Source: a plasmid. Taken from it: a DNA stretch of 64,000 bases. Position numbers and translations under genes: made by a program. Below the pieces are notes generated by a model, which saw nothing but the letters and a program-made list of their open reading frames with translations, did not search any database and had not been told where the DNA came from. The stretch is from the sequence record NZ_CP110908.1; one strand, 5' to 3'. Positions within the stretch are counted from its first letter, which is position 1, and each line of letters opens with the position of its first letter. This document shows positions 21,529 to 51,063 of the stretch, piece by piece.

Positions 21529-21532
21529 TACC

Positions 21533-25363: not shown

Positions 25364-25364
25364 A

Positions 25365-26530: not shown

Positions 26531-26937
26531 ACAGGACATATATGCTCGACACCCGTCTCTGCGCGTACATCATGCGCGAGCAGCCGGAAGCGGTACTGAC
26601 ACGCCTGGAGCAGGCGGTGCTGCGCGGCGACCGTATCGTGGTCTCTGCCGTCACCTGGGCCGAACTGTCACAGGCGGCACGGGCGTCCGGTCCCGCCACG
26701 CAGGCACTGGCCGACGCGTTCTGCGCCAGTCTCGATGCCGTGCTGGCCTGGGATCGCGCCGCGGTGGATGCCACCACCGTCATTAAGGCAGCACTGGCCG
26801 CAGACGGCACGCCGATCGGCCCGAATGACACGGCGATCGCTGGGCATGCCATCGCCGCCGGCGCCGTGCTGGTGACGAACAATGTGAGAGAGTTTGCGCG
26901 GGTCCCGGGCCTGGTGCTGGAAGACTGGGTTAAATAG
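26527..26937 (+). CDS. vapC: VapC PIN-domain toxin
   Basis: GTG overlaps the vapB stop (GTGA); ATG at 26542 is an alternative start; PIN residues (LDTRL..., TNNVREF). Confidence 0.8.
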   Translation: MNRTYMLDTRLCAYIMREQPEAVLTRLEQAVLRGDRIVVSAVTWAELSQAARASGPATQALADAFCASLDAVLAWDRAAVDATTVIKAALAADGTPIGPNDTAIAGHAIAAGAVLVTNNVREFARVPGLVLEDWVK

Positions 26938-28964: not shown

Positions 28965-30019
28965 GGCTTTGTTGAATAAATCGAACTTTTGCTGAGTTGA
29001 AGGATCAGATCACGCATCCTCCCGACAACACAGACCATTCCGTGGCAAAGCAAAAGTTCATAATCACCAACTGGTCCACCTACAACAAAGCTCTCATCAA
29101 CCGTGGCTCCCTCACTTTCTGGCTGGATGATGAGGCGATTCAGGCCTGGTATGAGTCGGCAACGCCTTCATCACGAGGAAGGCCCCAGCGCTATTCTGAT
29201 CTCGCCATCACCACCGTTCTGGTGATTAAACGCGTATTCCGGCTGACCCAGCGGGCTGCGCAGGGTTTTATTGATCCCATTTTTGCCCTGATGAACGTTC
29301 CGTTGCGCTGCCCGGATTACACCAGTGTCAGTAAGCGGGCAAAGTCGGTTAATGTCAGTTTCAAAACGTCCACCCGGGGTGAAATCGCACACCTGGTGAT
29401 TGATTCCACCGGGCTGAAGGTCTTTGGTGAAGGCGAATGGAAAGTCAGAAAGCACGGCAAAGAGCGCCGTCGTATCTGGCGAAAGTTGCATCTTGCTGTT
29501 GACAGCAACACACATGAAGTTGTCTGTGCAGACCTGTCGCTGAATAACGTCACGGACTCAGAAGCCTTCCCGGGCCTTATCCGGCAGACTCACAGAAAAA
29601 TCAGGGCAGCCGCGGCAGACGGGGCTTACGATACCCGGCTCTGTCACGATGAACTGCGCCGCAAAAAATCAGCGCGCTGATTCCTCCCCGAAAAGGAGCA
29701 GGTTACTGGCCCGGTGAGTACGCAGACCGCAACCGTGCCGTTGCTAATCAGCGGCTGAGCGGAAGCAATGCACGGTGGAAATGGACAACGGAATATAACC
29801 GTCGCTCGATAGCGGAAACGGCAATGTACAGAATGAAGCAGTTGTTGGGAGATTCACTGACGCTGCGTGACTACGATGGTCAGGTAGCGGAAGCTATGGC
29901 CATGGTGCGTGCGTTGAACAGGATGACAAAGGCTGGGATGCCAGAAAGCGTGCGTATTGCCTGAAAATCCAGCCAGCTACAGGGTCGTTCGCACGAAATC
30001 TTATTTATTCAACAAAGCC
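28965..30019 (+). mobile_element. IS903-like element (IS5 family), ~1055 bp, transposase frameshifted
   Basis: Ends GGCTTTGTTGAATAAATCG and its inverted copy; tnp ORF 28997-29680 continues in another frame to ~29964 (A6 run near 29662); no flanking 9-bp TSD. Confidence 0.8.
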
Positions 30020-30247
30020 CATCGGCACCCATCTGGTTTACCTGGTGGCGATCAAAAATATCATCCTGAGCCAAGAGGGACACGGCCTGATTTACTTTAA
30101 GCGCAGATTTCATCCGGTGTTAATTGAACAAGAAATAACCGTTTAATACCCCTTCGCCAGTCGAATTTCGGCTGGCGCTTATTTGTTTTCCACTCTCTGA
30201 AATTGAAACAATCACTATCAGAAACTAATGTCCAATATACGCTTTTG

Positions 30248-30256
30248 CCCCCCCCC
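30248..30256. repeat. Homopolymeric C9 tract upstream of kps region 1
   Basis: TTTTGCCCCCCCCCACCAGAG. Confidence 0.9.
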
Positions 30257-30466
30257 ACCAGAGTTAATAGTCTTTCGGACTTTTCCCCTTTTTCAGAGCT
30301 GATTTCTGAAATTTGAAATGACACAATCTGCAAATTAATGTAATCTTCGCCACACAAAAACACTTTCATGAATAATAAAAAACGATTTAGTTGTTTACTG
30401 AATAGTTTTTTATGGCAGCATCCTAAAGCAAATTGAACACTTTCTAACCGGAATCGTCATTTTCCG

Positions 30467-30478
30467 TGCGGTAGCCTA
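30467..30478 (+). promoter_or_regulatory. ops-like element (TGCGGTAGCCTA; ops consensus GGCGGTAGCGTG) upstream of kps region 1
   Basis: 9 of 12 match including the GCGGTAG core, about 150 bp upstream of the lipoprotein/kpsD operon. Confidence 0.4.
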
Positions 30479-30630
30479 CCTTTTTTTTGCCCTTTATTGC
30501 TTCATTTCCTCAGCTATGCGCCTCTGCTCCCTGGCCTTCGGGTCAACTTTTTGGGCAATATAAACAGTCGGGTACCTACGAATTTTTATATTCACACGCC
30601 AGGTTCCGAATACATGGAAAATATTTACAA

Positions 30631-31005
30631 ATGAAGAACGCAACTCGCCTTCTGGTGATTTCGCTCGCCCTCATCCTGAGTGGCTGTGCATATTCCCCGA
30701 AGCAGGTTGAAGCCTCAAGACCGCTTGTAAATCAAGCCGCTTCGACCGATCTCCACGCTATGGCAGCTAACCTGCAACAACCTCTGAACACCCTGCCGCA
30801 GGGCGCTACTCTTAGCGCCAATGGCACCACCTTTACCCTGGGTCAGCGCTATGTCTCTGCCCTGGGGCTGGAATGCATTGAACTGCTGCGTAACCGTAAC
30901 TACAACCAGTCGCAGTGCGGCGTGACCTGCAAGAACGGTGATACCTGGTATCTGATACCGCAACTGGAACAGGCATCTGCCAGCAACTTGCTTGCCGTTC
31001 AATAA
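30631..31005 (+). CDS. Lipoprotein (124 aa), first gene of kps region 1
   Basis: MKNATRLLVISLALILSGC lipobox signal peptide; ORF 30487-31005 trimmed to this ATG. Confidence 0.6.
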   Translation: MKNATRLLVISLALILSGCAYSPKQVEASRPLVNQAASTDLHAMAANLQQPLNTLPQGATLSANGTTFTLGQRYVSALGLECIELLRNRNYNQSQCGVTCKNGDTWYLIPQLEQASASNLLAVQ

Positions 31006-31007
31006 TT

Positions 31008-32786
31008 TTGAAGAGAAATGTTGTGAAGATAACGAAATTTCGGCAATTGAGTGCCATTCTGCTGCTGGCCTGCGCCTCTTGCGCTGCCATTGCCGCCCCT
31101 TCTAAGGAAGATGCTCAGGCCTTTGGAATGAACACTCCGGCAGATACCGGCGACGGCCGACTGCAACTCGGCGGTGATCAGGCGATGAGCGGTCAGGCGA
31201 ACACCTCCTCTACCACCGGGACTTTTACGCAGCAAAACCGCCAGGGCATGTTACTGCCGGGCGAGTCCGACGTGCGTAAATTACTCCCGCAGTCCGAGTC
31301 CGGTCTGCCCCCTCCTTACGGTGCCAACCTGTTTGCCGGTGGCTATGAAACCGAGCGCAGCGACGGTCTGACTGATAATTACCTGATCGCTCCCGGCGAT
31401 AAGCTGAATATCTGGATCTGGGGCGCAGTCAATTTCTCCAACGTCGTCACCGTTGATAATCAGGGTAATATTTTCATCCCTGATGTCGGGCCGATTAATG
31501 TAAAAAACGTAGCAGCAAGTAAAGTCAATAACTTAGTCACCAGCCACATCAGTGAAGTATTTACCAATAACGTTAATGTTTACGTAAATTTACTTACGGC
31601 AACGCCGGTCAGCGTATTTGTGACCGGCCCGGTGATCCGTCCGGGGCAATATGCCGGCCAGTCTTCCGACAGCGTGCTCTATTTCCTGAAACGCGCAGGC
31701 GGTATCGACTCCGATCGCGGCAGCTACCGTCATATTAAGGTGTTGCGTCAGAACCGGGTCATTCAACAGATCGACCTGTACGAGTTTATGCAGCAGGGCA
31801 AAATGCCGAAGCTGGCGCTGAAGGATCAGGACGTGATCCTGGTTGAACCGCAGGGGCCGATGATCAACGTGGCCGGTAAAGTGCGTAACCCGTTCCGCTT
31901 CGAGTTAAAGAACAGCAGCGCGCTGGGCTCCGAGCTTATCGATTACGCTCTGCCGCTCGCGAAGGTGAGCCACGTGGGCGTGATTGGCGATCGCGCCAGC
32001 GGCCCGTTCTCGGTCTATATGCCATATAAAGATTTTGATCGCATTCAGCTGAGCGACGGCGACAAAGTGCTGTTCAACGACGATATGCATGCCCAGGTTT
32101 ACGACGTTCAGGTGATGGGCAGCTACCGTGGGCCATCTTACTTCACCGTGCGTAAAGAGACCCGACTGCACGATCTGCTTAACCATATTCCGATTGACCC
32201 GAACATGGCAGATTACGGCTCGATCTACATCATGCGTAAGAGCGTGGCCGCGCGGCAGAAAGAGATGCTGGAAGACTCCCTGAACCGCCTGGAGCGCAGC
32301 GTGTTTACCGCGCCAGCAAATTCCGACGGTGAGGCTTCCATTCGTACCAAAGAAGCCGAGCTGGTAATGCGCTTCGTGGAAAAAGCCCGCAAGATCCAGC
32401 CGCTGGGGAAAGTGGTGGTGTCGGATAAGGGCGTGATTGCCAACATCCTGCTGGAACAGGGCGACCAGATTGTGATCCCGAACAAGACCGACCTGATTCA
32501 GGTGGGTGGCGAAGTGATGATGCCGCAGGCGGTGGTCTACAACAAAAGCGCCACCCTGGAAGACTATGTGGCCTGGGCGGGCGGCTTTACCGATCGTGCA
32601 AACGATAAGCGTATTGCCGTGGTACATGCCAACGGGCTGATGGAGTTTAAAGACGGCGGTGATGTGATGGCAGGCGATCAGATTCTGGTCATGCCGAAAG
32701 TGGACAGCAAAATGATGCAGTCCATCAAAGATATTACCCAGGTCATCTATCAGGTTGCCGTGGCGGCCAACGTGGTCCTGAATTAA
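31008..32786 (+). CDS. kpsD: Capsule polysaccharide export protein KpsD
   Basis: 592 aa, collinear similarity to E. coli KpsD (DKLNIWIWGA...NQGNIFIPDVGPINV...RAGGID). Confidence 0.85.
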   Translation: MKRNVVKITKFRQLSAILLLACASCAAIAAPSKEDAQAFGMNTPADTGDGRLQLGGDQAMSGQANTSSTTGTFTQQNRQGMLLPGESDVRKLLPQSESGLPPPYGANLFAGGYETERSDGLTDNYLIAPGDKLNIWIWGAVNFSNVVTVDNQGNIFIPDVGPINVKNVAASKVNNLVTSHISEVFTNNVNVYVNLLTATPVSVFVTGPVIRPGQYAGQSSDSVLYFLKRAGGIDSDRGSYRHIKVLRQNRVIQQIDLYEFMQQGKMPKLALKDQDVILVEPQGPMINVAGKVRNPFRFELKNSSALGSELIDYALPLAKVSHVGVIGDRASGPFSVYMPYKDFDRIQLSDGDKVLFNDDMHAQVYDVQVMGSYRGPSYFTVRKETRLHDLLNHIPIDPNMADYGSIYIMRKSVAARQKEMLEDSLNRLERSVFTAPANSDGEASIRTKEAELVMRFVEKARKIQPLGKVVVSDKGVIANILLEQGDQIVIPNKTDLIQVGGEVMMPQAVVYNKSATLEDYVAWAGGFTDRANDKRIAVVHANGLMEFKDGGDVMAGDQILVMPKVDSKMMQSIKDITQVIYQVAVAANVVLN

Positions 32787-32840
32787 CCCTTATAGCGGGC
32801 TCGCCTCATCGCGGGCCCGTTCTGTTATATCGGCCTTCTC

Positions 32841-33641
32841 ATGCTTAAACCTGTTCTCAATCAAACGCCCCGCAGCTCGTTCCAGGTGCTGCGCGATGTA
32901 ACGTTTGGCCTGCTTATACGTGAACTGAAAACACGATTTGGGAGTTACCGACTGGGGTATGCCTGGGCGCTGTTGGATCCGTTGTTGATGATTGGTCTGT
33001 TTAGTGCGATTTTCGGGATGCGTGGACACAGTGGTTTTGGTGGCGCGCCTGCACCGCTCTTTATTACTGCGGGCTATCTGCCATTTATCTTTTTTAAGAA
33101 TGTGGTAAGCAAGCTGCAATCGGCAGTCAATGCTAACAAAGGGTTGTTTTGCTATCGGCAAGTGACACCTTTCTCCACTTTTATCGCCCGGTTTATCCTT
33201 GAAACCATTGTTGGCATGATCGTCGGCGGCATTCTTATCCTGGGATTATTATGGTTTGGGTTTGATGCCGTACCAGCTGACCCGCTGAAAATCATTCTTA
33301 TCTATATGCTGTTTATGGTTTTTTCGTTCTCATTGGGCGTCGTCTTTTGCATTACGGGCAACTTAGTTAACGAGGCCGAAAAATTCCTCGGTTTGTTAAT
33401 GATGCCGTTAATGTTTATCTCCTGCGTTATGTATCCCCTGGCAAGTATCCCGTCACTGTATCAACACTGGTTTTTATGGAATCCCCTGGTACACGCCCTT
33501 GAGCTAATACGCTCTGGCTGGATTGCCGGCTACGCCAGCCCGAACGCCAGTTGGACTTATCTGTTTGGGGTGACACTGGTACTGCTAACGTTTGCTATGA
33601 GTAGCTATCGCCTGAGCCATCGCCGACTGATTGCCAGCTAA
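32841..33641 (+). CDS. kpsM: Capsule ABC transporter permease KpsM (ABC-2)
   Basis: 266 aa, multi-TM. Confidence 0.85.
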   Translation: MLKPVLNQTPRSSFQVLRDVTFGLLIRELKTRFGSYRLGYAWALLDPLLMIGLFSAIFGMRGHSGFGGAPAPLFITAGYLPFIFFKNVVSKLQSAVNANKGLFCYRQVTPFSTFIARFILETIVGMIVGGILILGLLWFGFDAVPADPLKIILIYMLFMVFSFSLGVVFCITGNLVNEAEKFLGLLMMPLMFISCVMYPLASIPSLYQHWFLWNPLVHALELIRSGWIAGYASPNASWTYLFGVTLVLLTFAMSSYRLSHRRLIAS

Positions 33642-33651
33642 GGGGGATAGC

Positions 33652-34302
33652 ATGATTGTTCTGGAAAACGTCTCTAAATATTACCCCACCAAATTTGGCC
33701 GCAATTATGTTTTGCGTGATGTAAACATTACTCTCCCTCGCGATCGCAACATCGGTATTTTGGGTGTTAACGGGGCAGGAAAATCTACCCTTCTTCGCCT
33801 TCTAGGCGGCATGGATATGCCTAATAAAGGCAAGGTCACCCGCCACTGCCGTGTCTCGTGGCCCCTTGCCTTGAATGGAGGTTTCCAAGGAAGCATGACC
33901 GGACGAGAAAACACCCGCTTTGTTTGCCGTATTCATGGAGTAAGGGATACGCAAGCTATTGAGGAGTGGGTAAAAGAGTTCTCGGAAATCGGCCAGCACT
34001 ATGAGTTGCCGATTAAAGGCTACTCTAGCGGGATGAGATCGAAATTTTCTTTTGCTGTAAGTATGGCCTTTGATTTTGATATCTATCTTACTGACGAAAT
34101 CATGTCTGTTGGCGATGCCCGATTTAAGCAGAAATGTATAGATACTTTTAACCAAAAACGCGAGACAGCCAGCCTGATCATGGTTTCACATGATATGAAG
34201 AACCTGCGCCAACAATGCGATATGGGGATTTTGCTGCGCAACAGTGCTCTTGAGGTGTTCGATAATATCGACGACGCCATCCGCATTTATCAAAGTTTGT
34301 AA
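33652..34302 (+). CDS. kpsT: Capsule ABC transporter ATPase KpsT
   Basis: MIVLENVSKYY...GVNGAGKSTLLRLLGG...YSSGMRSKFSF; GGGGGA SD. Confidence 0.85.
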   Translation: MIVLENVSKYYPTKFGRNYVLRDVNITLPRDRNIGILGVNGAGKSTLLRLLGGMDMPNKGKVTRHCRVSWPLALNGGFQGSMTGRENTRFVCRIHGVRDTQAIEEWVKEFSEIGQHYELPIKGYSSGMRSKFSFAVSMAFDFDIYLTDEIMSVGDARFKQKCIDTFNQKRETASLIMVSHDMKNLRQQCDMGILLRNSALEVFDNIDDAIRIYQSL

Positions 34303-34317
34303 TCAACCGATAAAATC

Positions 34318-35520
34318 ATGACCCAACCAATTCGTTCTAACAAAGCATCAGGAATGATGCGTAAGCTGCGCAAGTTAAAAACTAAACCAAAACATTTTAT
34401 TGTCGACTCCAGTGGATTCCGTCTTGCTCAGCAATCATGGAAACAGAGCCTTAAACTCGGCAGTTTCATGTGGGTAGTAGCCTTTTTTTCCATTGCCGTA
34501 GTCTATTTTGGTTTCATCGCTTCGGATCGTTATGTAAGCCGGGCGCAGCTAGTCATTAAACAAGCTGACCAAATAAAAATGTTGCCTGACGCACTGTCAA
34601 TGCTGGGCATTGGTGGAAGTAATCACGAAGATGTATTGCTGGTTCAAGACTATCTGAACTCTCCAGATATGCTTGCAAAACTGGATAAAGAGTTGGGTCT
34701 GAAAGCACATTATCAAAGTCATGATATAGATTATTTCTCTCGGTTATCAGGTGATGTAAGCCAGGAGGATTTCCTCAAATATTATCGGGATCATTTGTCA
34801 TTGCGTCTCGATGACCTCTCAGGTGTGCTTACAGTGGAACTGCAAGCATTTGATCCTGCTTATGGTCAACGCGTGGTGAACCTGATGCTTAAAGAGTCAG
34901 AGGGTTTCATCAATAAACTCGGACATCAGGTAGCACTGGAACAACTGGCCTTCGTCGAAAAAGAGGTCGATCGTGCTTATCAGCGTGTACAGGATGAAAA
35001 AGCGAAGGTTCTTGATTTTCAGAACCAACATAATCTGATTAGCCCCGAATCGACCAGTACTGCCCGTCTGGGTGTGGTCAGCCAGATCGAAAGCGAACTG
35101 GCAAGCCAGCAGGCGCAGCTGAAACAGCTGCAGAGTTATATGAAGGACACGGCGCCTGCTGTCATTTCTATTAAGGCCAGAGTGGAGGCTTTAACTGAGC
35201 AACTGGCCCAGGAAAAAGCCAGACTTACTGGCACGGATCAAAATGCAATGAATGAAGTGACCGCTCGCTATATGGATATTCAGACTCAGGCTACTCTGGC
35301 CGTCGATCTTTATAAAAGCGGTCTTATCAGCCTGGAACAAGCTCGGGTTGAGGCGTACCGCAAGCTTAAACACTTGCTTGTTGTGAGCCAGCCAACGATT
35401 GCACAAGATGCAGAGTACCCACGACGCCTCTATAACCTTGCAACAATCGGTGTACTTCTTTGTCTACTGTATGGATTAATCGTGATGGGACTCGCGACAC
35501 TTCGTGAACATCAGGATTAA
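34318..35520 (+). CDS. kpsE: Capsule export inner-membrane protein KpsE
   Basis: 400 aa, similar to KpsE (YLNSPDMLAKLDKELGL..., C-terminal TM). Confidence 0.85.
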   Translation: MTQPIRSNKASGMMRKLRKLKTKPKHFIVDSSGFRLAQQSWKQSLKLGSFMWVVAFFSIAVVYFGFIASDRYVSRAQLVIKQADQIKMLPDALSMLGIGGSNHEDVLLVQDYLNSPDMLAKLDKELGLKAHYQSHDIDYFSRLSGDVSQEDFLKYYRDHLSLRLDDLSGVLTVELQAFDPAYGQRVVNLMLKESEGFINKLGHQVALEQLAFVEKEVDRAYQRVQDEKAKVLDFQNQHNLISPESTSTARLGVVSQIESELASQQAQLKQLQSYMKDTAPAVISIKARVEALTEQLAQEKARLTGTDQNAMNEVTARYMDIQTQATLAVDLYKSGLISLEQARVEAYRKLKHLLVVSQPTIAQDAEYPRRLYNLATIGVLLCLLYGLIVMGLATLREHQD

Positions 35521-35579
35521 AAAAATATCTAAAATAATTGTTTCTTTATTTTTTGCATAACAATTGTGTTACAAAGTTA

Positions 35580-36346
35580 GGTAATGACTCCAACTTATTG
35601 ATAGTGTTTTATGTTCAGATAATGCCCGATGACTTTGTCATGCAGCTCCACCGATTTTGAGAACGACAGCGACTTCCGTCCCAGCCGTGCCAGGTGCTGC
35701 CTCAGATTCAGGTTATGCCGCTCAATTCGCTGCGTATATCGCTTGCTGATTACGTGCAGCTTTCCCTTCAGGCGGGATTCATACAGCGGCCAGCCATCCG
35801 TCATCCATATCACCACGTCAAAGGGTGACAGCAGGCTCATAAGACGCCCCAGCGTCGCCATAGTGCGTTCACCGAATACGTGCGCAACAACCGTCTTCCG
35901 GAGACTGTCATACGCGTAAAACAGCCAGCGCTGGCGCGATTTAGCCCCGACATAGCCCCACTGTTCGTCCATTTCCGCGCAGACGATGACGTCACTGCCC
36001 GGCTGTATGCGCGAGGTTACCGACTGCGGCCTGAGTTTTTTAAGTGACGTAAAATCGTGTTGAGGCCAACGCCCATAATGCGGGCAGTTGCCCGGCATCC
36101 AACGCATTCATGGCCATATCAATGATTTTCTGGTGCGTACCGGGTTGAGAAGCGGTGTAAGTGAACTGCAGTTGCCATGTTTTACGGCAGTGAGAGCAGA
36201 GATAGCGCTGATGTCCGGCGGTGCTTTTGCCGTTACGCACCACCCCGTCAGTAGCTGAACAGGAGGGACAGCTGATAGAAACAGAAGCCACTGGAGCACC
36301 TCAAAAACACCATCATACACTAAATCAGTAAGTTGGCAGCATCACC
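35580..36346 (-). mobile_element. IS1 with 8-9-bp TSD (CAAAGTTAG)
   Basis: Ends GGTAATGACTCCAACTTATTGATAGTG and ATCAGTAAGTTGGCAGCATCACC; InsA/InsB ORFs present. Confidence 0.9.
35595..36291 (-). CDS. insAB: IS1 transposase InsA/InsB (programmed -1 frameshift gives InsAB')
   Basis: [32 protein letters not shown] (InsA) and InsB-like ORF 35595-36107. Confidence 0.85.
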
Positions 36347-36456
36347 CAAAGTTAGCTTGGTATATTTTCTAATACCAGCAAAAAGACTTCACATTACAAT
36401 TCGTGGGAGAGTCTTTTTCCCACAATCTCTTCCATCATCCTTAAAATTTTACAGCT

Positions 36457-37563
36457 ATGCGAAAACTAAAAAAATTTTTTAGGCATCCTGGAATTTTTGT
36501 TCGGGATCATTTGAATAAGAAATATCCAGTCATTCGTAATGAGATCGCATGCTCTGCGGATGAAGAACATATTTTAATTCGTCATGACCTCGAAATGGAG
36601 GCTCAGATCAAAATTGACTTCCCTATTGATGTTGTTTTTACTTGGGTAGATGATTCGGATCCAAAATGGCAAAAACGTTATAATTACTTTAAGCATTCAA
36701 CAAATAAAGATAGCTTAGGTGAATATGCAACAGATCCGGCCAGATTTAGTAATCATGATGAGTTAAGGTATTCTCTTCAAAGCGTCTTAAAATTTTTACC
36801 TTGGGTTCGGCGAATCTATATTGTTACTGATAATCAATGTCCGGAATGGCTCAAAGCAAGTGAAAAAATTAAGATAATTGATCACAATGAAATAATTCAA
36901 GAGCAATATTTACCAACATTTAATTCTCATGTAATTGAAGCCCATTTACATAAAATTCCTGATTTAGCTGAACACTTTATCTATTTTAACGACGATGTAT
37001 TCGTTGCAAGACCACTTCCCCCAGGCCATTTTTTTAGGAGCAATGGTATTGCATCTTTGTTTATGTCGAAGAAAAGCCTTGCTGTTATGCAAGAAAAAGG
37101 CAAAAACACTCCTACACTTTCAGCCTCACTAAGATCAGCATCTATTTTAAATAATAAATTTAGTTTAATCATCGATAATCCTTTAGTACATACATATGTA
37201 CCACTTCGAAGAACTATGTTTGAAGAAGCATGGAAGGTTTACGAATCTGAGCTTTCAACGTTTCTATCTAATAAATTCAGGACGAATGATGACATCAATA
37301 TGGCAACGTTTTTTGTACCTTGGTTATGTTATATACGCGGTACGGCTGTACCATCCAGGGATATTTGCTATTACTTCAATGTCAGATCCCCGGCGGCGGC
37401 AACATATTTTAAAGCCCTAGAAGTCGCTAAAAAGAAAGGAACTCTTCCACATTCTTTTTGTGCCAATGATTTTAATACAAAAATAACAGCCAACTCTGAT
37501 TATAAAGGGTTGCTAGAATCCGCACTTAAGCAATATTTCGAACACGGTAATAAAAATGATTAA
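36457..37563 (+). CDS. Stealth-family capsule hexose-1-phosphotransferase (kps region 2)
   Basis: 368 aa with Stealth conserved regions ([34 protein letters not shown]); ~30 percent GC. Confidence 0.75.
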
Positions 37564-40500: not shown

Positions 40501-41740
40501 TGAGTTCAACATAGTTGATACATCCATATACAATACTTTTAAAAGAAAATATGAAGATTATAAAAACTATTGGAAATTAATCTGCGAAGGAAAAAAAGAG
40601 AAAGCGGCTTTAATTTTAGAAAAAAGGATAGTAACATGTACGCATGATGAGCTTGTAACTATGCAACCGCAACTGTTACTTGCAAATACATATTGCCAGT
40701 TAAAACGTTTAACTGATGCAAATCAGCAATTATCCAATTTCGAAAAACATACTAACAACTCTCCATTCTGTCGAGAAATAATAGCACAGTTAGCTTATCT
40801 TAGAAAAAACTGGAATAAAGTTATAGTTCAAGTCAGAACCGCTTATCCAACAATAAATGATACTCCTGAGCCAGTCGTTGTATTAACAATCAAAGCATTA
40901 CAAAATCAGAAGAAAGAATTATCTGCTGCGTTAAATAAAGTAACGAAGCCAGAGACAATAATAAGCAAGTCAATATATCTTCGCGATAAAGGTTTGCTTA
41001 ACCAAGCGCGGTCGCTATTAACTGATAACCGTAATATATTGATTGAGAATAACAACATTAATAATTATAATATCGAGATAGCTAAAATAGAAATTTTACT
41101 TCACAACTGGCAGAAAGCTCTTTCACATTTAGAGCAGTTAACTAAGCTTGATTATGAAACAGGCATGATGAAATTAAAGTGTCTCGCCGAATTACGTAGA
41201 CCTAAAGCAATTCGCCGCGCCTTAAGTGATAGTGAATGGTTCCAAAGCTTGCCACCTTATCAGTATAATTTTGCGGAGTCGCTATTTGAATATTCCAAGG
41301 GTAACATCCAAAGGGCTACAACATTATTAAGCAAAGCATTAATTGAATACCGCCCCGATCTGTTGATCATGCATAAACCTTATTTATGGCTTGCTCGTTG
41401 TTTACGTGAATTGGGGCAACTCGATGCTGCGCATAATGCTCTTCTGGAGCATGAAAAATTATTAAATAATGATCCTCAATGCAGAGAACAAATTGCTCGC
41501 TTAGCAATTAACAATAATAAGTTGAAAAAAGCCATATTTCAACTTGAAAAGGCATATCCAGATTACTCAAGTTTGCCTTTAGATTTAGCAACTATTTTAA
41601 TATTTGCATTAAGAAGTGAAAATAATCACACTCAAGCTGAAAAAGTTATTAAGTCTCTGCCGATTGATTTTGCTTCGAAAATCCCTATTGATACGGAATA
41701 TTCTTTTGAAAATATGTTAAAAGAACCGGCACATTCCTAA
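37556..41740 (+). CDS. Giant multidomain capsule biosynthesis protein: GT2 glycosyltransferase, then CDP-glycerol glycerophosphotransferase (TagB/TagF-like), then TPR repeats
   Basis: 1394 aa. N-terminal [14 protein letters not shown]...[12 protein letters not shown] (GT2). Central ~520-800 [13 protein letters not shown] and FPRHDHL (TagF-like). C-terminal ~550 aa of repeated TPR-like helices. Confidence 0.7.
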
Positions 41741-41802
41741 ATTATTAAAGTGATGCTAAAAACTTCAACTATTTCAACTCATTACTTAACGGAAATATTT
41801 TA

Positions 41803-43542
41803 ATGTCATCTCTTGACTCTCTTGGCATTGAGTACAATTTAAAACAATCCTCATTAAAAGATGATTACTTATCCTTTTACGAGCGCGAAATATCATACAG
41901 ACTTCCTAATAGTTTTACCCTGCTAATCATAACGAATGAAAAAATAGAAGATGTTGCTTCGGTTTATTCAAAGAAATATCCACTATCAAAAATCATTGTC
42001 GCGTCATATGGATATGAAAGCTATACAACTTCGTTTTTAGATAATGTGGTTTTCCACGCTTTCATAAATCTAGATGCGCTTATCAATCAGATTTCTTTAA
42101 TTTATTTTGATGCGGTTATTGAACATAGCTCTAATCGAAAATCACATAAACTAAAACTGTTTAAGAAACTTTTCTTCAGATTACCAAAAGGAGGGGTTTA
42201 TTTCATCCAAGAATTACATGCTAAGTTTATTTCTGGATTAATCGATTGCGACGGCCCTGACATTCTTGACCTTATAAACGAAGTTTCCCAATTAAAAATA
42301 TCAAATAATGACAGAAGAAAAAACGCTGACCCTTATGCCGTAGCACTTGCTGAATGTTGCGAAAGTATATTTATAAAAAGTAAGTTAGGTGTCTTGGTCA
42401 AAGGTAAAGCTTCTTTCAAAAGTTTAAGAAGCAACGAAGCTAAAAACATGATCAACTCTGGTTCATTGAAAGGGAGTATAATTGTATCAAATGATAATGA
42501 ATTTGAATTTGTACATTCAATAACATCTGTTATAACTCCAACTGGTGAGCCATGGCGAAATCCAGCCAAATTTAAAATACCAGAATCGTTTTTAGCTAAA
42601 TACCAAAGTGTACATTGTGATGTTGGACAGATCGCATATATGGATGGATATTTGTTGCCCGATTCCTTTAGAATGCAGCATCACAAAAAACTTACAAATC
42701 GTAATATAATCTCTTTAGTAGCTGATATTTGTTTATTAAAAGATGAAAAACCAGATCCGATTCATCTTGCAGGTGAATACTTTTATCTTGATTCGGAATA
42801 TCCGGGTCATTTCGGGCATTTTACTTCTGAGGTAGTTTCAAGACTATGGGCATGGGAAGAGATTAAAACAAGATCTCCTAATGCAAAAGTATTAATTGGG
42901 CTTGAAAAAGGAAAATCATTGCCAAGTTTTATTGAAACTATATTATCATGTTATCACATTAGTAGAAATGAAATACAAACCTTCGATAGTAGTATCACTG
43001 TTGATGTTCTTTATGCTGCCACTCCTTACTATGCTATCGGCAATCACATAAATCCAAAAATAAAAGATGTTTGGGAGAGAATTGGTGAGAGTACTAATGA
43101 TGGTATTTCCGGGATTATTGGCAATCGATTATTTATTTCTAGACCTGAAGGCGGGGAAAGAAAATGTCTAAATGCTGAAAAACTAGAACGTATATTCTTT
43201 GAAAGAGGTTTTGAGTTTTACAACCCTGAAAAATATTCCTGGAAAGATCAGGTTAAAACATTTTCCAGTGCTGACGTTATTGCTGGCTATGCGGGAAGCG
43301 GCACTTTCAACACCATGTTTGCTAAAGGTTCTAAAAAAATATTTATCATTGGTTCAGACTCATATACTGCAACAAACGAGCATTATATCTGCGCCATTAA
43401 AGGTTATGATTTAAATTATTACCTTGGTGATTCATTAGTAAAACATGGCAATGTATTTTCACTAAAAGCATTTAAATCTGATTATAACTTTAATTATGAA
43501 CGAGATGAAGAATCACTCATTGATGCATTAAGTAAAATATAA
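41803..43542 (+). CDS. DUF563/GT61-like capsular glycosyltransferase (kps region 2)
   Basis: 579 aa; EYFYLDSEYPGHFGHFTSEVVSRLWAW matches the DUF563 core. Confidence 0.6.
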   Translation: MSSLDSLGIEYNLKQSSLKDDYLSFYEREISYRLPNSFTLLIITNEKIEDVASVYSKKYPLSKIIVASYGYESYTTSFLDNVVFHAFINLDALINQISLIYFDAVIEHSSNRKSHKLKLFKKLFFRLPKGGVYFIQELHAKFISGLIDCDGPDILDLINEVSQLKISNNDRRKNADPYAVALAECCESIFIKSKLGVLVKGKASFKSLRSNEAKNMINSGSLKGSIIVSNDNEFEFVHSITSVITPTGEPWRNPAKFKIPESFLAKYQSVHCDVGQIAYMDGYLLPDSFRMQHHKKLTNRNIISLVADICLLKDEKPDPIHLAGEYFYLDSEYPGHFGHFTSEVVSRLWAWEEIKTRSPNAKVLIGLEKGKSLPSFIETILSCYHISRNEIQTFDSSITVDVLYAATPYYAIGNHINPKIKDVWERIGESTNDGISGIIGNRLFISRPEGGERKCLNAEKLERIFFERGFEFYNPEKYSWKDQVKTFSSADVIAGYAGSGTFNTMFAKGSKKIFIIGSDSYTATNEHYICAIKGYDLNYYLGDSLVKHGNVFSLKAFKSDYNFNYERDEESLIDALSKI

Positions 43543-43650
43543 CCTATATTGGGTTGTTTTTTAAGTGCTATAATCTTCTCAAAGTCTGATGTAGCCCCCT
43601 GAAACACCGGACAGTAGCTGTATCTCCAGATAAGAGACAGGCTTGAATAT

Positions 43651-44046
43651 ATGTCTAACACTAACGCCAATTTTGAGATGACCGGGATCCTGTTAGGGCA
43701 AGAAGTCCGTAAACGTAAAACTCCTCAGGAGAAGATCGCCATTATCCAGCAGACGATGGAGCCGGGTATGAATGTCTCCCATGTCGCCCGCCTGCATGGT
43801 ATCCAGCCCAGCCTGCTGTTTAAGTGGAAGAAGCAATATCAGGAAGGCAGCCTCACCGCCGTTGCGGCTGGAGAGGAAGTCGTTCCTGCTTCTGAGCTTA
43901 CTGCTGCTCTGAAGCAGGTCCGGGAGCTTCAGCGCCTTCTGGGCAAGAAGACGATGGAAGTTGAGATCCTGAAAGAAGCCGTGGAGTACGGTCAGTCGCG
44001 AAAATGGATAGCGCACGCGCCCTTGTTGCCAAAGGACGGGGAATAG
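43651..44046 (+). CDS. IS3-family transposase OrfA
   Basis: Similar to IS2 InsC ([25 protein letters not shown]). Confidence 0.85.
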
Positions 44047-44885
44047 CCATGGTCTGCCGGACCATGGGCGTGTCGCGTGCGCAACTGTCACTGCGGATTA
44101 ACCGTTCTGCCGACTGGCAGGACAGGCGCTGTAACCGGCGTAATGAAGAAGCAGACGCAGAAATACTGTCGGCTATCCTCAACATTATCAGCGATATGCC
44201 GAGTTATGGTTATCGACGCGTGTGGGGCATCCTGCGCAAGCAACGTCGCACAGAGGGACAGCTACCTGTGAATGCCAAACGGCTTTACAGGATAATGCGT
44301 GAGCATAACCTGTTGTTGTTGCATCACAAACCAGAGCGACCGAAGCGTGAACATAAGGGCAAGATAGCGGTGGCAGAAAGCGATATGCGCTGGTGTTCAG
44401 ATGGCTTCGAGTTCGGCTGCGACAACGGCGAAAAACTGCGGGTAACGTTCGCGCTGGACTGCTGCGACCGTGAGGCCATAGACTGGGCAGCAAGCACGGG
44501 AGGCTATGACAGTTCGACCGTGCAGGATGTGATGCTGAGGTCGGTGGAAAAGCGCTTCGGCGACAGGTTGCCCGACACAGCGGTGCAGTGGCTGACGGAT
44601 AACGGTTCAGCGTATACCGCGTATGAAACGCGGAGGTTCGCGAGAGAGCTGAATCTGGAGCCCTGCACAACAGCGGTGAGCAGCCCGCAGAGTAATGGCA
44701 TGGCCGAACGGTTCGTGAAAACGATGAAAGAAGACTATATCGCGTTCATGCCAAAACCGGATGTGAGAACAGCACTGCGAAACCTTGCAGTAGCGTTCAC
44801 GCATTACAATGAAAACCACCCGCACAGCGCGCTGGGATATCACTCCCCGAGGGAATACCGGCGGCAGCGGACATCGTTAACTTAA
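44004..44885 (+). CDS. IS3-family transposase OrfB
   Basis: 293 aa, similar to IS2 InsD. Confidence 0.85.
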
Positions 44886-44949
44886 GATACAAAAGCTGTT
44901 CGGAGATGGAGGGTCAAGATCAAATCTTCTCAAAGTCACTCATTGAAAA

Positions 44950-45272
44950 AAACAATTAGAGCATAGTTCGACGTGGCGGTGGATATCCGTAAAAGCTCCC
45001 CGACCTTTGGTCAGTGGGTGGGCGTGCATCTGTCTGGCGAGAACAAGCGTCAGCTGTGGATCCCGGAAGGTTTCGCCCACGGCTTTATGACCCTGAGCGA
45101 CACCGCAGAGTTCCTGTACAAAACCACCAACTACTATGCGCCGGAGAGCGACCGTGGCATCCGCTGGAACGATGAGACCATTGCGATTACATGGCCGGAA
45201 ATCGACAGCGAGATCCTCACCTCCGCCAAAGACAGCGTTGCCAAATCCTTCCCTGACGCAGAGTACTTCTGA
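44950..45272 (+). pseudogene. rmlC: dTDP-4-dehydrorhamnose 3,5-epimerase (RmlC) 3' fragment
   Basis: ...WIPEGFAHGFMTLSDTAEFLYKTTNYYAPESDRGIRWNDETI... C-terminal RmlC sequence with no N-terminus; followed by hairpin CACGCCCCGCAGTGACGCGGGGCGTTTT. Confidence 0.75.
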
Positions 45273-45307
45273 GTCACACGCCCCGCAGTGACGCGGGGCG
45301 TTTTCTG

Positions 45308-47326
45308 ATGCACAGAGCGCACATGAAATTCTATACAGGTTCAGCCGGGATCCTGGCCCGAAAGGCACAGCTCGAGCCGATGCTGGGTCACCCGTTACAC
45401 GCCTTCAAATCCAGCATGCAGCTGGCGCAGGACGATGTACTGGTCGGCTGGGGCCAAAAAGCTAATACCCGCCAAATAAAACAAAAAGCCCAGGACCTCG
45501 GCCTGCCGTACTGGCAGCTGGAAGATGGCTTTATCGGTTATATTGGCCACCCCGCCAGAGGGGGCAAGGCCGTCTCCCTGATCGCAGATCCTGTGGGCAT
45601 TTACTACGACGCTCGCCAGCCCAGCCGCCTTGAGCAGCTGATCGCCACCCCGTGCGATACCATGCTGCTGGCGCGGGCTGAAGCGCTGACCAGCGAACTG
45701 CTGCGTCTTGGCATCACCAAGTACAATTGCTATGCCGCGGGCAGCGCTCTACCCGACGCGCTGGCCGCCCGCCTGCACAGCGACGCCCGTCCTAAGGTGC
45801 TACTGATCGACCAGGTTGCGGGGGATCTCTCCATTCCCGGCGCGCTCGCCAGCGAGGCGGATTTTGTTGAAATGGTTGCCGCTGCGCGGCGTAACCACCC
45901 CGGCGCCCGCCTGCTGCTGCGTACCCATCCGGATACCCGGCTGGGCAAGAAGCGCGGCGTGCTGGCGCAGATGCAGCTGGATGACGTGGAAAGGGTCACC
46001 GATCACTGCCATCCTCATGCCCTGCTGAATGAGGTGGAAGCAGTCTATACCGTCTCCTCGCAGATGGGGTTTGAAGCCCTGCTGCTGGGCAAAGCGGTCT
46101 GGTGCTTCGGCATGCCGTTTTACGCCGGCTGGGGATTGACCCATGACAGCAAATCCTGCCCGCGTCGCCAGGCGCAGATTAGCCTGCCGCAGCTGGTGGC
46201 AGCGGCGCTGATCCTCTATCCCCGCTATCTGGATCCGGTGCTGGGCCAGCGCTGCGAAGTGGAGCAGGTGCTTGAGGTCATTGCGGATCAGCTGAATCCG
46301 GCCCCGCGCTATCGCCGTCTGTATATGGTGGGCTTCTCGCTGTGGAAACGCGCCTTTATGCGCGCCTTCTGTCAGCCGCTGGCTGAGGAGCTGCGCTTTG
46401 TGCGCACCCCGCCCAAACGGCTGGCCGCTGACGAGCAGGTGCTGGTGTGGGGCAGTCGTTATCCCGAACTGGCAAACGCAATTCGGGTGGAGGATGGTTT
46501 TATCCGCTCCCGGGGACTGGGCTCGAACCTGTGCCGCCCTTCCTCGCTCTCCATCGACCCGGTGGGGATCTACTTCGACAGCCGCCATCCGAGCGGGCTG
46601 GAGCAGTTGCTCAACCAGCAGCAGCTCAGCGAACAGGCGCTGGAACGCGGCGCCGCGCTGGTGGACATGCTCCGCCAGCATGGGGTCAGCAAGTATAACG
46701 TCGGCACCGTGCAGCCGTTCACCGCGCCGGCCGACGGGCGAGCGCTGGTGCTGGTGGTGGGCCAGGTCGATGGCGATGCCTCGATCCTCACCGGCAGCCC
46801 GGTCATTCGCAGCAATGAACAGCTGCTGTGGGCCGTGCGTGCCGCCCGGCCAGAAGCGCATATCCTGTTTAAACCGCATCCGGACGTGGTGGCGGGAAAC
46901 CGGGCCGGTGCCATCTCGGCCGAATGCCTGGCGCGCTGCGTTGACAGCCAGGTGCTGGATCTCGGTCTCACCAGTCTCTATCCCCATGTGGATGAGCTGC
47001 ATACCATGACCTCCCTCAGCGGGTTCGAAGCGCTGGTGCAGGGAGTGAAGGTCGCTACATGGGGCCAGCCGTTCTACAGCGGCTGGGGGCTGACCGAAGA
47101 TATCCACCCGGCGGAGCGCCGTCAGCGCACCCTGCCCCTGGCGGCACTGGTTTACCTGACGCTGGTCGCCTATCCGCGCTATATCGACTGGCAGAGTGGC
47201 CTGTGGATGAGCCCGGAACAACTGATCCGCCAGCTGGCAGCGCAGGGAAACTCCTCATCGCAGAAGGCCAGCCGCTGGCAGCGCTGGCAGATCAAGCTGA
47301 GCTATCTGGCACAAACATTTCGTTAG
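45308..47326 (+). CDS. kpsC: Capsule polysaccharide export protein KpsC (beta-Kdo transferase)
   Basis: 672 aa, duplicated KpsC domains; ~60 percent GC. Confidence 0.85.
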   Translation: MHRAHMKFYTGSAGILARKAQLEPMLGHPLHAFKSSMQLAQDDVLVGWGQKANTRQIKQKAQDLGLPYWQLEDGFIGYIGHPARGGKAVSLIADPVGIYYDARQPSRLEQLIATPCDTMLLARAEALTSELLRLGITKYNCYAAGSALPDALAARLHSDARPKVLLIDQVAGDLSIPGALASEADFVEMVAAARRNHPGARLLLRTHPDTRLGKKRGVLAQMQLDDVERVTDHCHPHALLNEVEAVYTVSSQMGFEALLLGKAVWCFGMPFYAGWGLTHDSKSCPRRQAQISLPQLVAAALILYPRYLDPVLGQRCEVEQVLEVIADQLNPAPRYRRLYMVGFSLWKRAFMRAFCQPLAEELRFVRTPPKRLAADEQVLVWGSRYPELANAIRVEDGFIRSRGLGSNLCRPSSLSIDPVGIYFDSRHPSGLEQLLNQQQLSEQALERGAALVDMLRQHGVSKYNVGTVQPFTAPADGRALVLVVGQVDGDASILTGSPVIRSNEQLLWAVRAARPEAHILFKPHPDVVAGNRAGAISAECLARCVDSQVLDLGLTSLYPHVDELHTMTSLSGFEALVQGVKVATWGQPFYSGWGLTEDIHPAERRQRTLPLAALVYLTLVAYPRYIDWQSGLWMSPEQLIRQLAAQGNSSSQKASRWQRWQIKLSYLAQTFR

Positions 47327-47415
47327 CACACTATTTATCCCGATTTATTAAAGAAAAACGGTCATCAAGCCGTTAACTCACCTGTCTCATCAACGGAACC
47401 GATCTGGGAAAAAAA

Positions 47416-48660
47416 ATGGAAGAGCAAGCTATCCGCCATCTGCTGAATGGCCGCCGATATCTTTTATTACAAGGACCGATGGGCCCCTGCTTTTCACGTC
47501 TGGCAAGCTGGTTGCAGAGCAGCAAGCGTGAAGTGAAGCAGGTCTGCTTTAATGCCGGGGACTCATGGTATGCCGCGAAAGAGACCGCGCTGCACTACAC
47601 CGGCTCAGTAAAAAATTTTGCCTTCTGGCTGCGCGAGTTACATAAAACCTACCCCTTCGACACCATCGTCTGTTTTGGTGACTGTCGCCCGATGCATATC
47701 GAAGCGAAGAAGTGGGCGCGCAGCAAATCCATCGACTTCCTGGCATTTGAAGAGGGCTATTTCCGTCCCTTCTACATCACCCTGGAAAAAGGGGGCGTGA
47801 ATGCCTTCTCCTCGATGCCCATTGATGCGAAGTATTATCGCGAGCAGCCGCTGCCGGAGCTGAAAACCCCAACGCCGTGGAAACCGAGTTCCTTTAACCG
47901 TGCCGCCCATGCCATGCTCTACTATGCGGCGGGCTGGTTTGGCCGCCATCGCTACCGGGGCTACCGCCACCACAAGTCGTTCTCCCCGTGGTATGAGATG
48001 CGCTGCTGGTTCCGCGCCGGTCGCCGTAAGCTGTGGTATCGCTGGCAGCAGCGCCACATGCTGAGCCATATCACTGAAAAACTGGATAACCAGTACTACC
48101 TGGCAATTTTGCAGGTCTACAACGACAGCCAGATTATTCATCACAGCCCGTATAAAGACGTGCGTGACTATATTGAAACCGTGATCCGCTCCTTTGCCCG
48201 CCATGCGTCGAAAGAGCGCTATCTGGTGTTCAAGCATCACCCGATGGATCGTGGTCACCGTTTTTACGGCATCCTGATTAACAAGCTGACCGAAAAGTAT
48301 GACGTCAGCGGCCGGGTGCTCTATGTCCACGATCTCTCCCTGCCCGCCCTACTGACCCACACCCGGGGCGTGATCACCGTGAACAGCACCGCCGGCCTGT
48401 CGGCGCTGATCCATAACAAGCCGCTCAAGGTGATGGGCAAAGCGCTGTACGACATCGAAGGGTTAACCTGGCAGGGGCCGCTGAACCAGTTCTGGCAGGC
48501 GGATTTTGCTCCAGATGCAAAACTGTTCCAGCGTTTTCGTACCCACCTGCTCTATCAAACGCAGATCAACGCCGTCTTTTACGGCAAGTCCGACTGGCTG
48601 AACATCCCGACAGAAATTCCCCTGACGACACCGCTTGCCGATTCCGAGCTCGAACGCTAA
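47416..48660 (+). CDS. kpsS: Capsule polysaccharide export protein KpsS
   Basis: 414 aa (RYLLLQGPMGPCFSRLASWLQ..., CFGDCRPMH). Confidence 0.85.
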   Translation: MEEQAIRHLLNGRRYLLLQGPMGPCFSRLASWLQSSKREVKQVCFNAGDSWYAAKETALHYTGSVKNFAFWLRELHKTYPFDTIVCFGDCRPMHIEAKKWARSKSIDFLAFEEGYFRPFYITLEKGGVNAFSSMPIDAKYYREQPLPELKTPTPWKPSSFNRAAHAMLYYAAGWFGRHRYRGYRHHKSFSPWYEMRCWFRAGRRKLWYRWQQRHMLSHITEKLDNQYYLAILQVYNDSQIIHHSPYKDVRDYIETVIRSFARHASKERYLVFKHHPMDRGHRFYGILINKLTEKYDVSGRVLYVHDLSLPALLTHTRGVITVNSTAGLSALIHNKPLKVMGKALYDIEGLTWQGPLNQFWQADFAPDAKLFQRFRTHLLYQTQINAVFYGKSDWLNIPTEIPLTTPLADSELER

Positions 48661-48772
48661 TTCATCTCCACGCCGGGGAAATTGCCCCGGCGGATCCGAT
48701 CTCTACCGCGCTTTTATCCCGCCGCTGTAAAAATCCCTAATGTTTATCCCAATTCTGGCCGTTATAACCTAA

Positions 48773-51063
<2,291 letters not shown>

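Follow-up and report, generated by a model that had tools for sequence, protein, structure and literature searches.

What capsule would a kps locus specify when it rides on a conjugative carbapenem resistance plasmid, to which class of loci does it belong, and is this copy still in working order? We asked this of a 64,000-nucleotide stretch of plasmid DNA (record NZ_CP110908.1; hereafter the window), which is 100% identical to NZ_CP110892.1, that is, to pCF1807-2 of Citrobacter freundii CF1807, a urine isolate from Ningbo. We show that positions ~30440-48770 of the window hold a kps capsule locus that belongs to subgroup 3B (K11-type), carried by a conjugative NDM-1 plasmid; pCF1807-2 is 211 kb in size, combines IncC and IncFIC, has a full F-type tra operon, is typed as conjugative (MOBF/MPF_F) and carries blaNDM-1, blaTEM-1 and aac(3)-IId. 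An earlier, sequence-only reading of this DNA had proposed a complete ATP-binding cassette (ABC)-transporter capsule set in group 3 order (lipoprotein gene-kpsD-kpsM-kpsT-kpsE, a serotype-specific region 2, then kpsC-kpsS) on a conjugative resistance plasmid, and on all of this it was right. Our gene set, drawn from the listed open reading frames (ORFs) and from hidden Markov model (HMM) scans with Pfam and NCBIfam, places kpsD-M-T-E, region 2 and kpsC-S in just this order and at the positions proposed, with all genes on the plus strand. The same reading had predicted a teichoic-acid-like capsule from region 2. The explanation that we favor, and hold to be probable as a whole, is a different one: a 3B locus with a Cps1B-type hexose-phosphate capsule, late insertions of insertion sequence (IS) elements and a deletion of rml genes.

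The prediction of the capsule backbone turns on the 1394-aa protein encoded by the second gene of region 2. According to Litschko et al. (2018; PMC5974469), capsule polymerases with a TagF-like domain fall into two architectures. Enzymes of the first, the glycosyltransferase (GT)-A/TagF-like type (CslB, Cps12B, Cps1B, Cps4B and Ccs2), make poly(oligosaccharide-phosphate), and those tested (CslB, Cps12B, Cps1B and Ccs2) gave oligosaccharide-phosphate products; here the TagF-like domain moves hexose-1-phosphate from uridine diphosphate (UDP)-sugars, and the GT-A domain forms the beta-glycosidic bond. Enzymes of the second, TagF-like/GT-B type (Cps3D, Cps7D and others) make glycosyl-glycerol-phosphate from cytidine diphosphate (CDP)-glycerol, and their loci hold a predicted glycerol-3-phosphate cytidylyltransferase gene in region 2 (PMC5974469). 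The pCF1807-2 protein has a Glycos_transf_2 domain at residues 43-181, a Glyphos_transf domain (PF04464, 121.7 bits) at residues 487-852 and then tetratricopeptide repeats (TPR). When its C-terminal 546 residues were scanned alone, TPR-type matches at ~890-1334 were all that appeared, and Pfam scans gave no sign of a GT-B domain beyond the TagF-like one. A PDB search with the single sequence matched the GT-A domain only, to GT-A enzymes that include the K4 chondroitin polymerase. The motifs DDGS (79-82), DPDD (131-134), H589, PRxD (640-643), H717 and TDYSS (755-759) are kept in at least 97% of 121 homologues, and the ratio of nonsynonymous to synonymous substitution rates (dN/dS) is 0.11-0.12 relative to two sibling loci, L004 and L006, which are described below.

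The likeness to Cps1B of Actinobacillus pleuropneumoniae serotype 1 extends to single residues. Cps1B (1246 aa, with C-terminal TPR) has its catalytic residues at D133/D135, H587 and H717, and the colinear residues of the pCF1807-2 polymerase are D131/D133, H589 and H717. The comparison was made through Cps1B peptides translated from published mutagenesis primers, not through the full-length sequence; the peptides GLKYVQTEW, TFI(D)P(D)DFL and VIFAP(H)PNIE-PYLNEFNIP are matched in the pCF1807-2 polymerase around the DxD motif and H717, and its peptide FAPHPNIEPYLNEF is the counterpart of a Cps1B catalytic-site peptide. Synthesis of CDP-polyols calls for a cytidylyltransferase such as Cps7B or one of the TagD or TarI type. 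Three ORFs fill 36457-43542; none has a domain of this kind, and relaxing the threshold to E = 10 for the unassigned segments that were scanned revealed none. The annotation of the whole plasmid contains no gene for making CDP-glycerol or CDP-ribitol, and no CTP_transf_like/IspD-type cytidylyltransferase was called in seven related loci, the nucleotidyltransferase that two of these (L008 and L010) have in addition being of the sugar-1-phosphate type (PF00483) only. Because the architecture is that of Cps1B and no CDP-polyol gene was found, the predicted capsule is most likely a poly(oligosaccharide-phosphate) and not a polyol-phosphate polymer. The polymerase would build the backbone, its GT-A domain adding a beta-linked sugar and its TagF-like domain adding hexose-1-phosphate from a UDP-sugar.

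The sequence-only reading had thus made a sensible prediction in proposing a phosphodiester-linked polymer, and went too far in calling it teichoic-acid-like. In that case the TagF-like domain would take its glycerol- or ribitol-phosphate units from a CDP-polyol and polymerize them; capsules of this sort are those of E. coli K2, K18 and K100, of A. pleuropneumoniae serotypes 3 and 7 and of Hib. Such capsules do exist in E. coli and the Pasteurellaceae, and the five TagF motifs are conserved in the polymerase. However, we consider this very unlikely here, as the GT-A domain is N-terminal and the architecture GT-A/TagF-like instead of TagF-like/GT-B, the cytidylyltransferase is missing from region 2, from the plasmid (as annotated) and from the calls in the seven related loci, and the peptides around the catalytic sites agree with those of Cps1B, which is a Gal-1-P/GlcNAc polymerase. 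When GTDB species-representative genomes were scanned with the pCF1807-2 enzyme, no relative came up; a protein-cluster look-up returned homologues in many Aeromonas, Cronobacter, Yersinia and other genomes.

A second predicted enzyme of hexose-1-phosphate transfer is the Cps1A-like Stealth protein, whose gene opens region 2. Conserved regions CR1, CR2 and CR3 all score above the Pfam cut-offs, and the protein matches the structure of CpsY with E = 7.7e-47, a CR4-like FCAND being aligned to FCLND of CpsY; the proteins of region 2 do match Stealth, Glyphos_transf and GT61 models in the HMM scan, as had been expected of them. The Stealth gene has a dN/dS of 0.08-0.10 relative to the siblings L004 and L006, and its product is far better conserved than the neighboring polymerase (76% versus 24% amino acid identity on the K11 plasmid, 83% versus 47% on a plasmid of Citrobacter sp. 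CRE-46, and 85% versus 69% in the related locus L005). Such a pattern fits a substrate that does not depend on serotype, and it is the one expected of a serotype-independent priming enzyme. In A. pleuropneumoniae serotype 1, cps1A is a Stealth gene, and a Stealth gene followed by a Cps1B-type polymerase is therefore a known pairing, which we found also on the K11 plasmid, on the CRE-46 plasmid and on 71 E. coli chromosomes (~67% nucleotide identity). The serotype 1 locus shares with ours the Stealth gene and then a GT-A/TagF-like/TPR polymerase of >1200 aa (PMC5974469), but it is a Pasteurellaceae chromosomal locus of group 2 type, whereas that of pCF1807-2 is plasmid-borne and of group 3B; the genes downstream are cps1C and cps1D in the former and the methyltransferase-like/GT61 gene in the latter. 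Cps1A is a named candidate for the transition transferase that joins the polymer to its Kdo (3-deoxy-D-manno-octulosonic acid) anchor. By analogy, we infer for the pCF1807-2 protein the part of a transition transferase or of a side-chain phosphosugar transferase; it would add hexose-1-phosphate at a step that serotypes share, most likely the priming of the Kdo linker or a side branch.

One could instead assign to the Stealth protein the serotype-defining role of building the backbone, as the characterized bacterial Stealth proteins CsaB and CsxA are capsule polymerases and deletion of cps1A abolished the virulence of A. pleuropneumoniae. Against this, Cps1B-type enzymes alone make the full backbone in vitro, and Stealth is much more conserved than the polymerase across loci that must differ in serotype; we regard such a role as most improbable. 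A Stealth gene was also noted in a locus on the chromosome of E. coli MS14387 (L003, 2208-17836) and on 70 other E. coli chromosomes, where kpsF-E-D-U-C-S-M-T, all co-oriented, are followed by Stealth, by the gene of an 1183-aa TagF-like protein without a GT2 domain and by a hypothetical gene; no cytidylyltransferase was found in that locus. Judging from the part of a 2026 catalogue of K types (PMC13171606) that was covered, it may be K108 (Stealth of 363 aa, TagF-like protein of 1173 aa).

The third gene of region 2, nominally of the GT61 family, really encodes a protein in which a methyltransferase-like domain is fused to a glycosyltransferase, and the gene stands next to rml genes in related loci. 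The N-terminal 257 residues of this protein match no Pfam family at E = 10, and a PDB search with the single sequence returned nothing. An AlphaFold model made with 51 homologues (mean predicted local distance difference test score, 93.3) has two domains, with an N-terminal one (~1-220) that adopts the fold of MycE/SpnK-like sugar O-methyltransferases and a C-terminal GT61 catalytic domain whose fold is of GT-B type and resembles that of POMGNT2. Consistent with this, the family sequence profile matches MycE (E = 4e-8) and SpnK (E = 7e-8). Because the gene lies directly before the rml genes in relatives, a role in handling a deoxyhexose is plausible; the protein may add a further sugar to the polymer, possibly a 6-deoxyhexose such as rhamnose. 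A search of phages with the protein gave one weak match (26% identity). A 54%-identical homologue is encoded at 10001-11740 of two Atlantibacter hermannii-type contigs (L012 and L013), where it stands alone, with no kps genes nearby, in a prophage remnant between flagellar operons, beside genes for a tailspike (Peptidase_S74) and an injection protein. Such a position is typical of phage serotype-conversion genes.

How did this cassette come to lie between two IS elements and a fragment of rmlC? The sequence-only reading had correctly located an IS1 with its target duplication, an IS3-family element and a 3' remnant of rmlC; it took the elements to separate modules, and the remnant as a trace of an earlier rhamnose-containing region 2 that had been replaced. 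Neither conclusion agrees with what is found in relatives. Three assemblies reached through protein-cluster look-ups (L004, ERR12362286; L006, SRR28431539; L007, DRR865494) hold sibling loci that differ from pCF1807-2 in being without IS1 and the IS3-family element, and two more distant relatives are L008 (GCA_032070685.1, on a 314-kb contig that is probably chromosomal) and L010 (from a human gut metagenome). All five have kpsDMTE and the Stealth, polymerase and GT61 genes in the order seen in pCF1807-2. In L004, L006 and L007, kpsE, Stealth, polymerase and GT61 genes follow each other, with the same lengths and 89-93% protein identity. Given these lengths and identities and a dN/dS of 0.08-0.16 for the cassette (relative to L004 and L006), the Stealth-polymerase-GT61 cassette is, by its pattern of substitution, a selected and functional unit. 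The alignment of all three siblings to the window halts at 35574-35580 and restarts at 36357-36370, which is the site of IS1, and that of L006 and L007 then reaches 43586, which is the insertion point of the IS3-family element. Because siblings that lack the elements align straight over both sites, both IS elements are, on the evidence of these alignments, late simple insertions into intergenic DNA and not module boundaries; IS elements as recombination junctions between modules were accordingly rejected.

The ends of the two elements tell of insertion as well. IS1 is flanked by a perfect 9-bp target duplication, CAAAGTTAG (35572-35580 and 36347-36355). The ends of the IS3-family element were set by its copies on >1500 PLSDB plasmids. 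On either side of it stands one unit of a perfect 15-bp direct repeat, AATCTTCTCAAAGTC (43572-43586 and 44923-44937); the IS-free sibling L006 has this 15-mer once. Target duplications of IS3-family elements are usually 3-5 bp, and 15-16 bp is far longer. A second copy of the element, on pCFR-e790 (NZ_CP026241, 2990-4370), has a different, 16-bp flanking repeat, CTCTTCAATCAGAGTG, and the two target sequences look alike.

As for rml, L004 and L006 have ~350 bp of AT-rich spacer 3' of the GT61 gene and then rmlB, and the full layout in L008 and L010 is Stealth-polymerase-GT61-rmlB-rmlD-rmlA-rmlC-kpsC-kpsS; L008 and L010 add the nucleotidyltransferase mentioned above, and L010 also an acetyltransferase. 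In pCF1807-2, the IS3-family element is followed by 43 bp more of AT-rich spacer and then by nucleotide 243 of rmlC at 44966, exactly where nucleotide homology to L008, L010 and L015 begins, and no homologue of rmlB, rmlD or rmlA is found anywhere on the plasmid. By comparison with these layouts, ~3.6 kb (rmlB, rmlD, rmlA and the 5' part of rmlC) is deleted from the pCF1807-2 copy, which leaves the host chromosome to meet any need for deoxythymidine diphosphate (dTDP)-rhamnose. We rejected the idea that a rhamnose-type region 2 had been replaced, as relatives have this cassette together with rml genes (rmlB, or rmlBDAC); the rml genes were lost by deletion.

Is a locus of this kind new? The class is not. 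Hong et al. (2023; PMC10433991) reported that 3B clusters are mostly plasmid-borne and often flanked by IS1, with a region 1 of ~50% GC and a region 3 of at least 56%, and a 2026 catalogue paper likewise describes 3B clusters as plasmid-borne (PMC13171606). In pCF1807-2 the GC content is 50.2% in region 1, 32.6% in region 2 (31.9-34.8% for its genes) and 59.8% in region 3; the earlier estimates of ~60% for kpsCS held good, ~52% for region 1 was slightly high and 28-30% for region 2 too low. Plasmid comparisons were made against PLSDB by BLAST with IS-free sub-queries. Over its full length, region 1 shares 82.6-85.4% identity with plasmids of E. coli, Enterobacter and Leclercia, and matches to slightly shorter stretches reach 88.9%; among these plasmids are CP058177, CP058169, CP011590, MN423365 and CP058198, which are 3B in Table 1 of Hong et al. 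With the K11 reference plasmid, CP103510, it shares 84% identity. Of the 72,556 PLSDB plasmids, 22 have a full 3B region 1, and four of the 25 matching records are typed as conjugative. Both the class of the locus and its plasmid location are therefore already described, and the setting is rare, not new; within PLSDB, region 2 is present at full length on pCF1807-2 only. No copy of it turned up among 5,426 complete E. coli genomes, where the best matches reach ~67% nucleotide identity over part of its length, the part of the 2026 K-type catalogue that was covered has no 1394-aa protein and no GT61 protein of >378 aa, and close copies were found in three assemblies only (L004, L006 and L007). 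What is new is this particular type of region 2, composed of characterized enzyme families, within the known 3B class; of the novelty that had been claimed, the region 2 type stands, and the plasmid-borne 3B kps locus was known.

Among known K loci, 3B K11 is a relative. The two share the order lipoprotein gene-kpsDMTE ... kpsCS without kpsF and kpsU, K11-type clusters lie on plasmids with IS1 at their flanks or scattered through them, and KpsC and KpsS of K11/3B loci are 85-94% identical in amino acid sequence to those of pCF1807-2. Region 2 of K11 also opens with a Stealth gene, which is followed by that of a GT-A/TagF-like enzyme; however, the K11 polymerase has 757 aa, whereas that of pCF1807-2 has 1394 aa with TPR and is ~24-39% identical in the domain cores. 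Moreover, K11 has no methyltransferase-like/GT61 gene, and its HAD, kinase-like and other genes are absent from pCF1807-2. An rmlBDAC block (with or without a block of three glycosyltransferase genes) precedes kpsC in most group 3 clusters, but K11 is without one, so it is not obligatory (PMC10433991); pCF1807-2 has only the 307-nt remnant of rmlC. The Citrobacter host and the IncC/IncFIC NDM-1 plasmid set pCF1807-2 apart from the published 3B clusters. For region 3, identity is 98.6-98.9% with a 3B cluster on an E. coli chromosome and with the kps remnant of pKOX_NDM1-type plasmids, and 90.8% with L008. Compared with the siblings, region 1 shows lower identity (79-85%) than region 2 (89-91%). 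In these values one sees the mosaic pattern described by Hong et al. (PMC10433991).

The widespread pKOX_NDM1-type IncFII(Y) NDM-1 plasmids, likewise from Enterobacteriaceae, in which kpsC-kpsS are 98.9% identical in nucleotide sequence and adjoin IS1, have lost kpsDMTE and Stealth, whereas pCF1807-2 keeps all nine genes. Their sister 3B wreck, on pKOX_NDM1 (NC_021501, ~1270-7232) and at least 40 similar plasmids of ~100-119 kb, retains, of its Cps1B-type polymerase, the TPR end alone (38% amino acid identity), together with an Asp2-like fragment, IS1 and kpsC-kpsS, which are intact. On the plasmid of Citrobacter sp. CRE-46 are the Stealth gene and a polymerase gene interrupted by ISEc33, without kpsDMTE.

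The features of the locus are collected in Table 1. At its left edge lies an IS5-family element that ends near 30020, and at its right edge homology to other kps loci stops at 48773. Upstream of the lipoprotein gene are a promoter-like site (30347-30376) and a JUMPStart/ops-like block, which is nearly invariant (two variable columns) in four 3B loci whose upstream regions are otherwise ~74% identical. In the group 3 K96 capsule locus, a promoter far upstream of kpsD is followed by an ops element, and RfaH is required (PMC13410964). By analogy, we presume that the ops block is the RfaH loading site for a single long operon, an arrangement that matters here because two IS elements now lie inside the transcription unit. 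The lipoprotein matched no Pfam family in the HMM scan; L005, L008 and the K11 plasmid each have a gene of this size at the corresponding place. The start codon of kpsD is ambiguous, being either a TTG (31008) or the ATG chosen in the annotation (31185). Relative to 3B siblings, amino acid identity is 82-91% for KpsM, 90-94% for KpsT, 85-93% for KpsC (667 aa, of the same length as in siblings) and 89-94% for KpsS, for which the top NCBIfam model is KpsS (388 bits, under the equivalog cut-off of 600). No kpsF or kpsU was found in 30021-48773, and none is annotated on the whole plasmid, for which the PLSDB gene table is incomplete.

Table 1. Features of the kps locus of pCF1807-2 (window positions; alternative start positions are separated by a slash)
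Feature	Position	Strand	Basis or remarks
JUMPStart/ops-like block	30442-30489	+	Core GTGCGGTAGCCT at 30467-30478; upstream of lipoprotein gene
Small lipoprotein gene	30631-31005	+	124 aa; lipobox LSGC; precedes kpsD in 3B loci
kpsD, outer-membrane/periplasmic polysaccharide export	31008-32786	+	Poly_export and SLBB domains
kpsM, ABC-2 permease	32841-33641	+	ABC2_membrane; top NCBIfam model KpsM
kpsT, ABC ATPase	33631/33652-34302	+	ABC_tran
kpsE, inner-membrane export adaptor	34318-35520	+	TIGR01010 BexC/CtrB/KpsE, 451.6 bits (cut-off 437.5)
IS1	35581-36346	-	InsA/InsB; between kpsE and Stealth gene
Stealth-family hexose-1-phosphate transferase (Cps1A-like), predicted	36457-37563	+	368 aa; Stealth CR1-CR3
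Capsule polymerase, GT-A/TagF-like/TPR (Cps1B type), predicted	37556-41740	+	1394 aa; Pfam domains
Two-domain methyltransferase-like/GT61 protein	41803-43542	+	579 aa; Glyco_transf_61 on 337-509 only
IS3-family element	43587-44922	+	1336 bp; transposase domains; in AT-rich tail after GT61 gene
rmlC 3' remnant	44966-45272	+	Last 307 of 549 nt; dTDP_sugar_isom profile 80-166 of 168
kpsC, beta-Kdo transferase	45308/45323-47326	+	Two Capsule_synth domains, PF05159, 245 bits
kpsS, initiating beta-Kdo transferase	47416-48660	+	PF05159, 300 bits

If this copy works, one long RfaH/ops-dependent transcript would run from upstream of the lipoprotein gene through kpsS, KpsS and KpsC would build the beta-Kdo glycolipid primer, and KpsMT, KpsE and KpsD would export the polymer. 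Alternatively, the locus may be a decaying, silent remnant, its operon broken by the IS insertions and a needed precursor lost along with rmlBDA, so that no capsule is made in CF1807 or its transconjugants. Two IS elements do lie in the single transcription unit, ~3.6 kb of rml DNA is gone, sister loci on resistance plasmids (the pKOX_NDM1-type plasmids and that of CRE-46) are plainly degraded, and the K96 capsule needed all rml genes but rmlB (PMC13410964). On the other hand, all nine ORFs are intact and of the full length seen in siblings; the IS elements are intergenic and, because their target duplications are intact, look recent; the ops/RfaH block is preserved, and RfaH counteracts polarity; the K11 capsule is made without any rml genes (PMC10433991); and the C. 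freundii chromosome may supply dTDP-rhamnose. We give silence a real chance, although somewhat less than an even one.

At the other extreme, the NDM-1 plasmid might carry a still-working, uncatalogued K type, so that a single conjugation event would confer a new phosphoglycan capsule together with carbapenem resistance, with the GT61 fusion decorating the polymer from the dTDP-rhamnose of the host and with Stealth as the long-sought transition transferase to the Kdo anchor. We find this combination rather unlikely. If it were true, the serum resistance and the phage susceptibility of the recipient would change.

Several points weigh against the account that we favor. The rule that GT-A/TagF-like means hexose-phosphate comes from a handful of characterized enzymes, and its extension to this cassette, and to every 3B locus that has it, is a prediction from sequence and analogy. 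The CF1807 chromosome could conceivably provide a source of CDP-glycerol, and the donor sugars cannot be read from the sequence. Cps1A was inactive as a transition transferase in the single published assay, for which reason the role of Stealth here is a guess. In the methyltransferase-like domain, the usual glycine-rich S-adenosylmethionine-binding loop is not apparent, and family members do not conserve the stretch concerned; its methyltransferase activity is therefore uncertain. An IS1 within an operon is classically polar. With IS1 polarity and rml loss, the locus may be silent or its product altered. More generally, the function of the new 3B clusters of Hong et al. was unverified (PMC10433991).

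The surroundings of the kps island hold some features of their own. Sugar-acid catabolism islands flank the locus on both sides (window ~18700-23800 and 58500-64000, and 115629-124636 of the record), with genes for L-threonate/3-oxo-tetronate (ltnD, otnK, an aldolase and a GntP transporter) and glucuronide/glucuronate utilization (uidABC, uxuA, uxaC, uxuR), and the toxin-antitoxin pairs ccdAB and vapBC are found at ~25000-26900 of the window. A frameshifted gajA (Gabija OLD-family ATPase/TOPRIM; 27155-28811, plus strand) lies beside an IS5-family fragment (28997-29680). Its halves are an ORF at 27155-27430, which matches positions 1-81 of the GajA profile, and one at 27357-28811, which matches positions 85-531 (556.7 bits); no gajB was seen between gajA and the IS fragment ~190 bp downstream, and gajA looks like the remnant of a defense system beside the kps island. 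Elsewhere on the plasmid, beyond the window or at its edge, blaNDM-1-ble adjoins IS1 in the IncC part (39948-40760 of the record), and two identical Tn5403-family transposase genes, each beside a recombinase gene (184030-186927 and 47050-49947 of the record), lie at the apparent IncC/IncF junctions, which suggests a Tn5403-mediated cointegrate.

The known picture of group 3B capsules is left unchanged by this locus, which adds one type to it. The broader lesson concerns annotation. Predicted Cps1B-type hexose-phosphate polymerases are widespread in the kps loci of Enterobacterales and Aeromonas, yet they are annotated as "CDP-glycerol glycerophosphotransferases"; a TagF-like domain alone does not imply a teichoic-acid-like polymer. 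If the locus is expressed, a capsule, with the immune evasion and altered phage receptor that this would bring, and NDM-1 carbapenem resistance would be joined on one self-transmissible plasmid, a linkage that matters for surveillance and for phage therapy.

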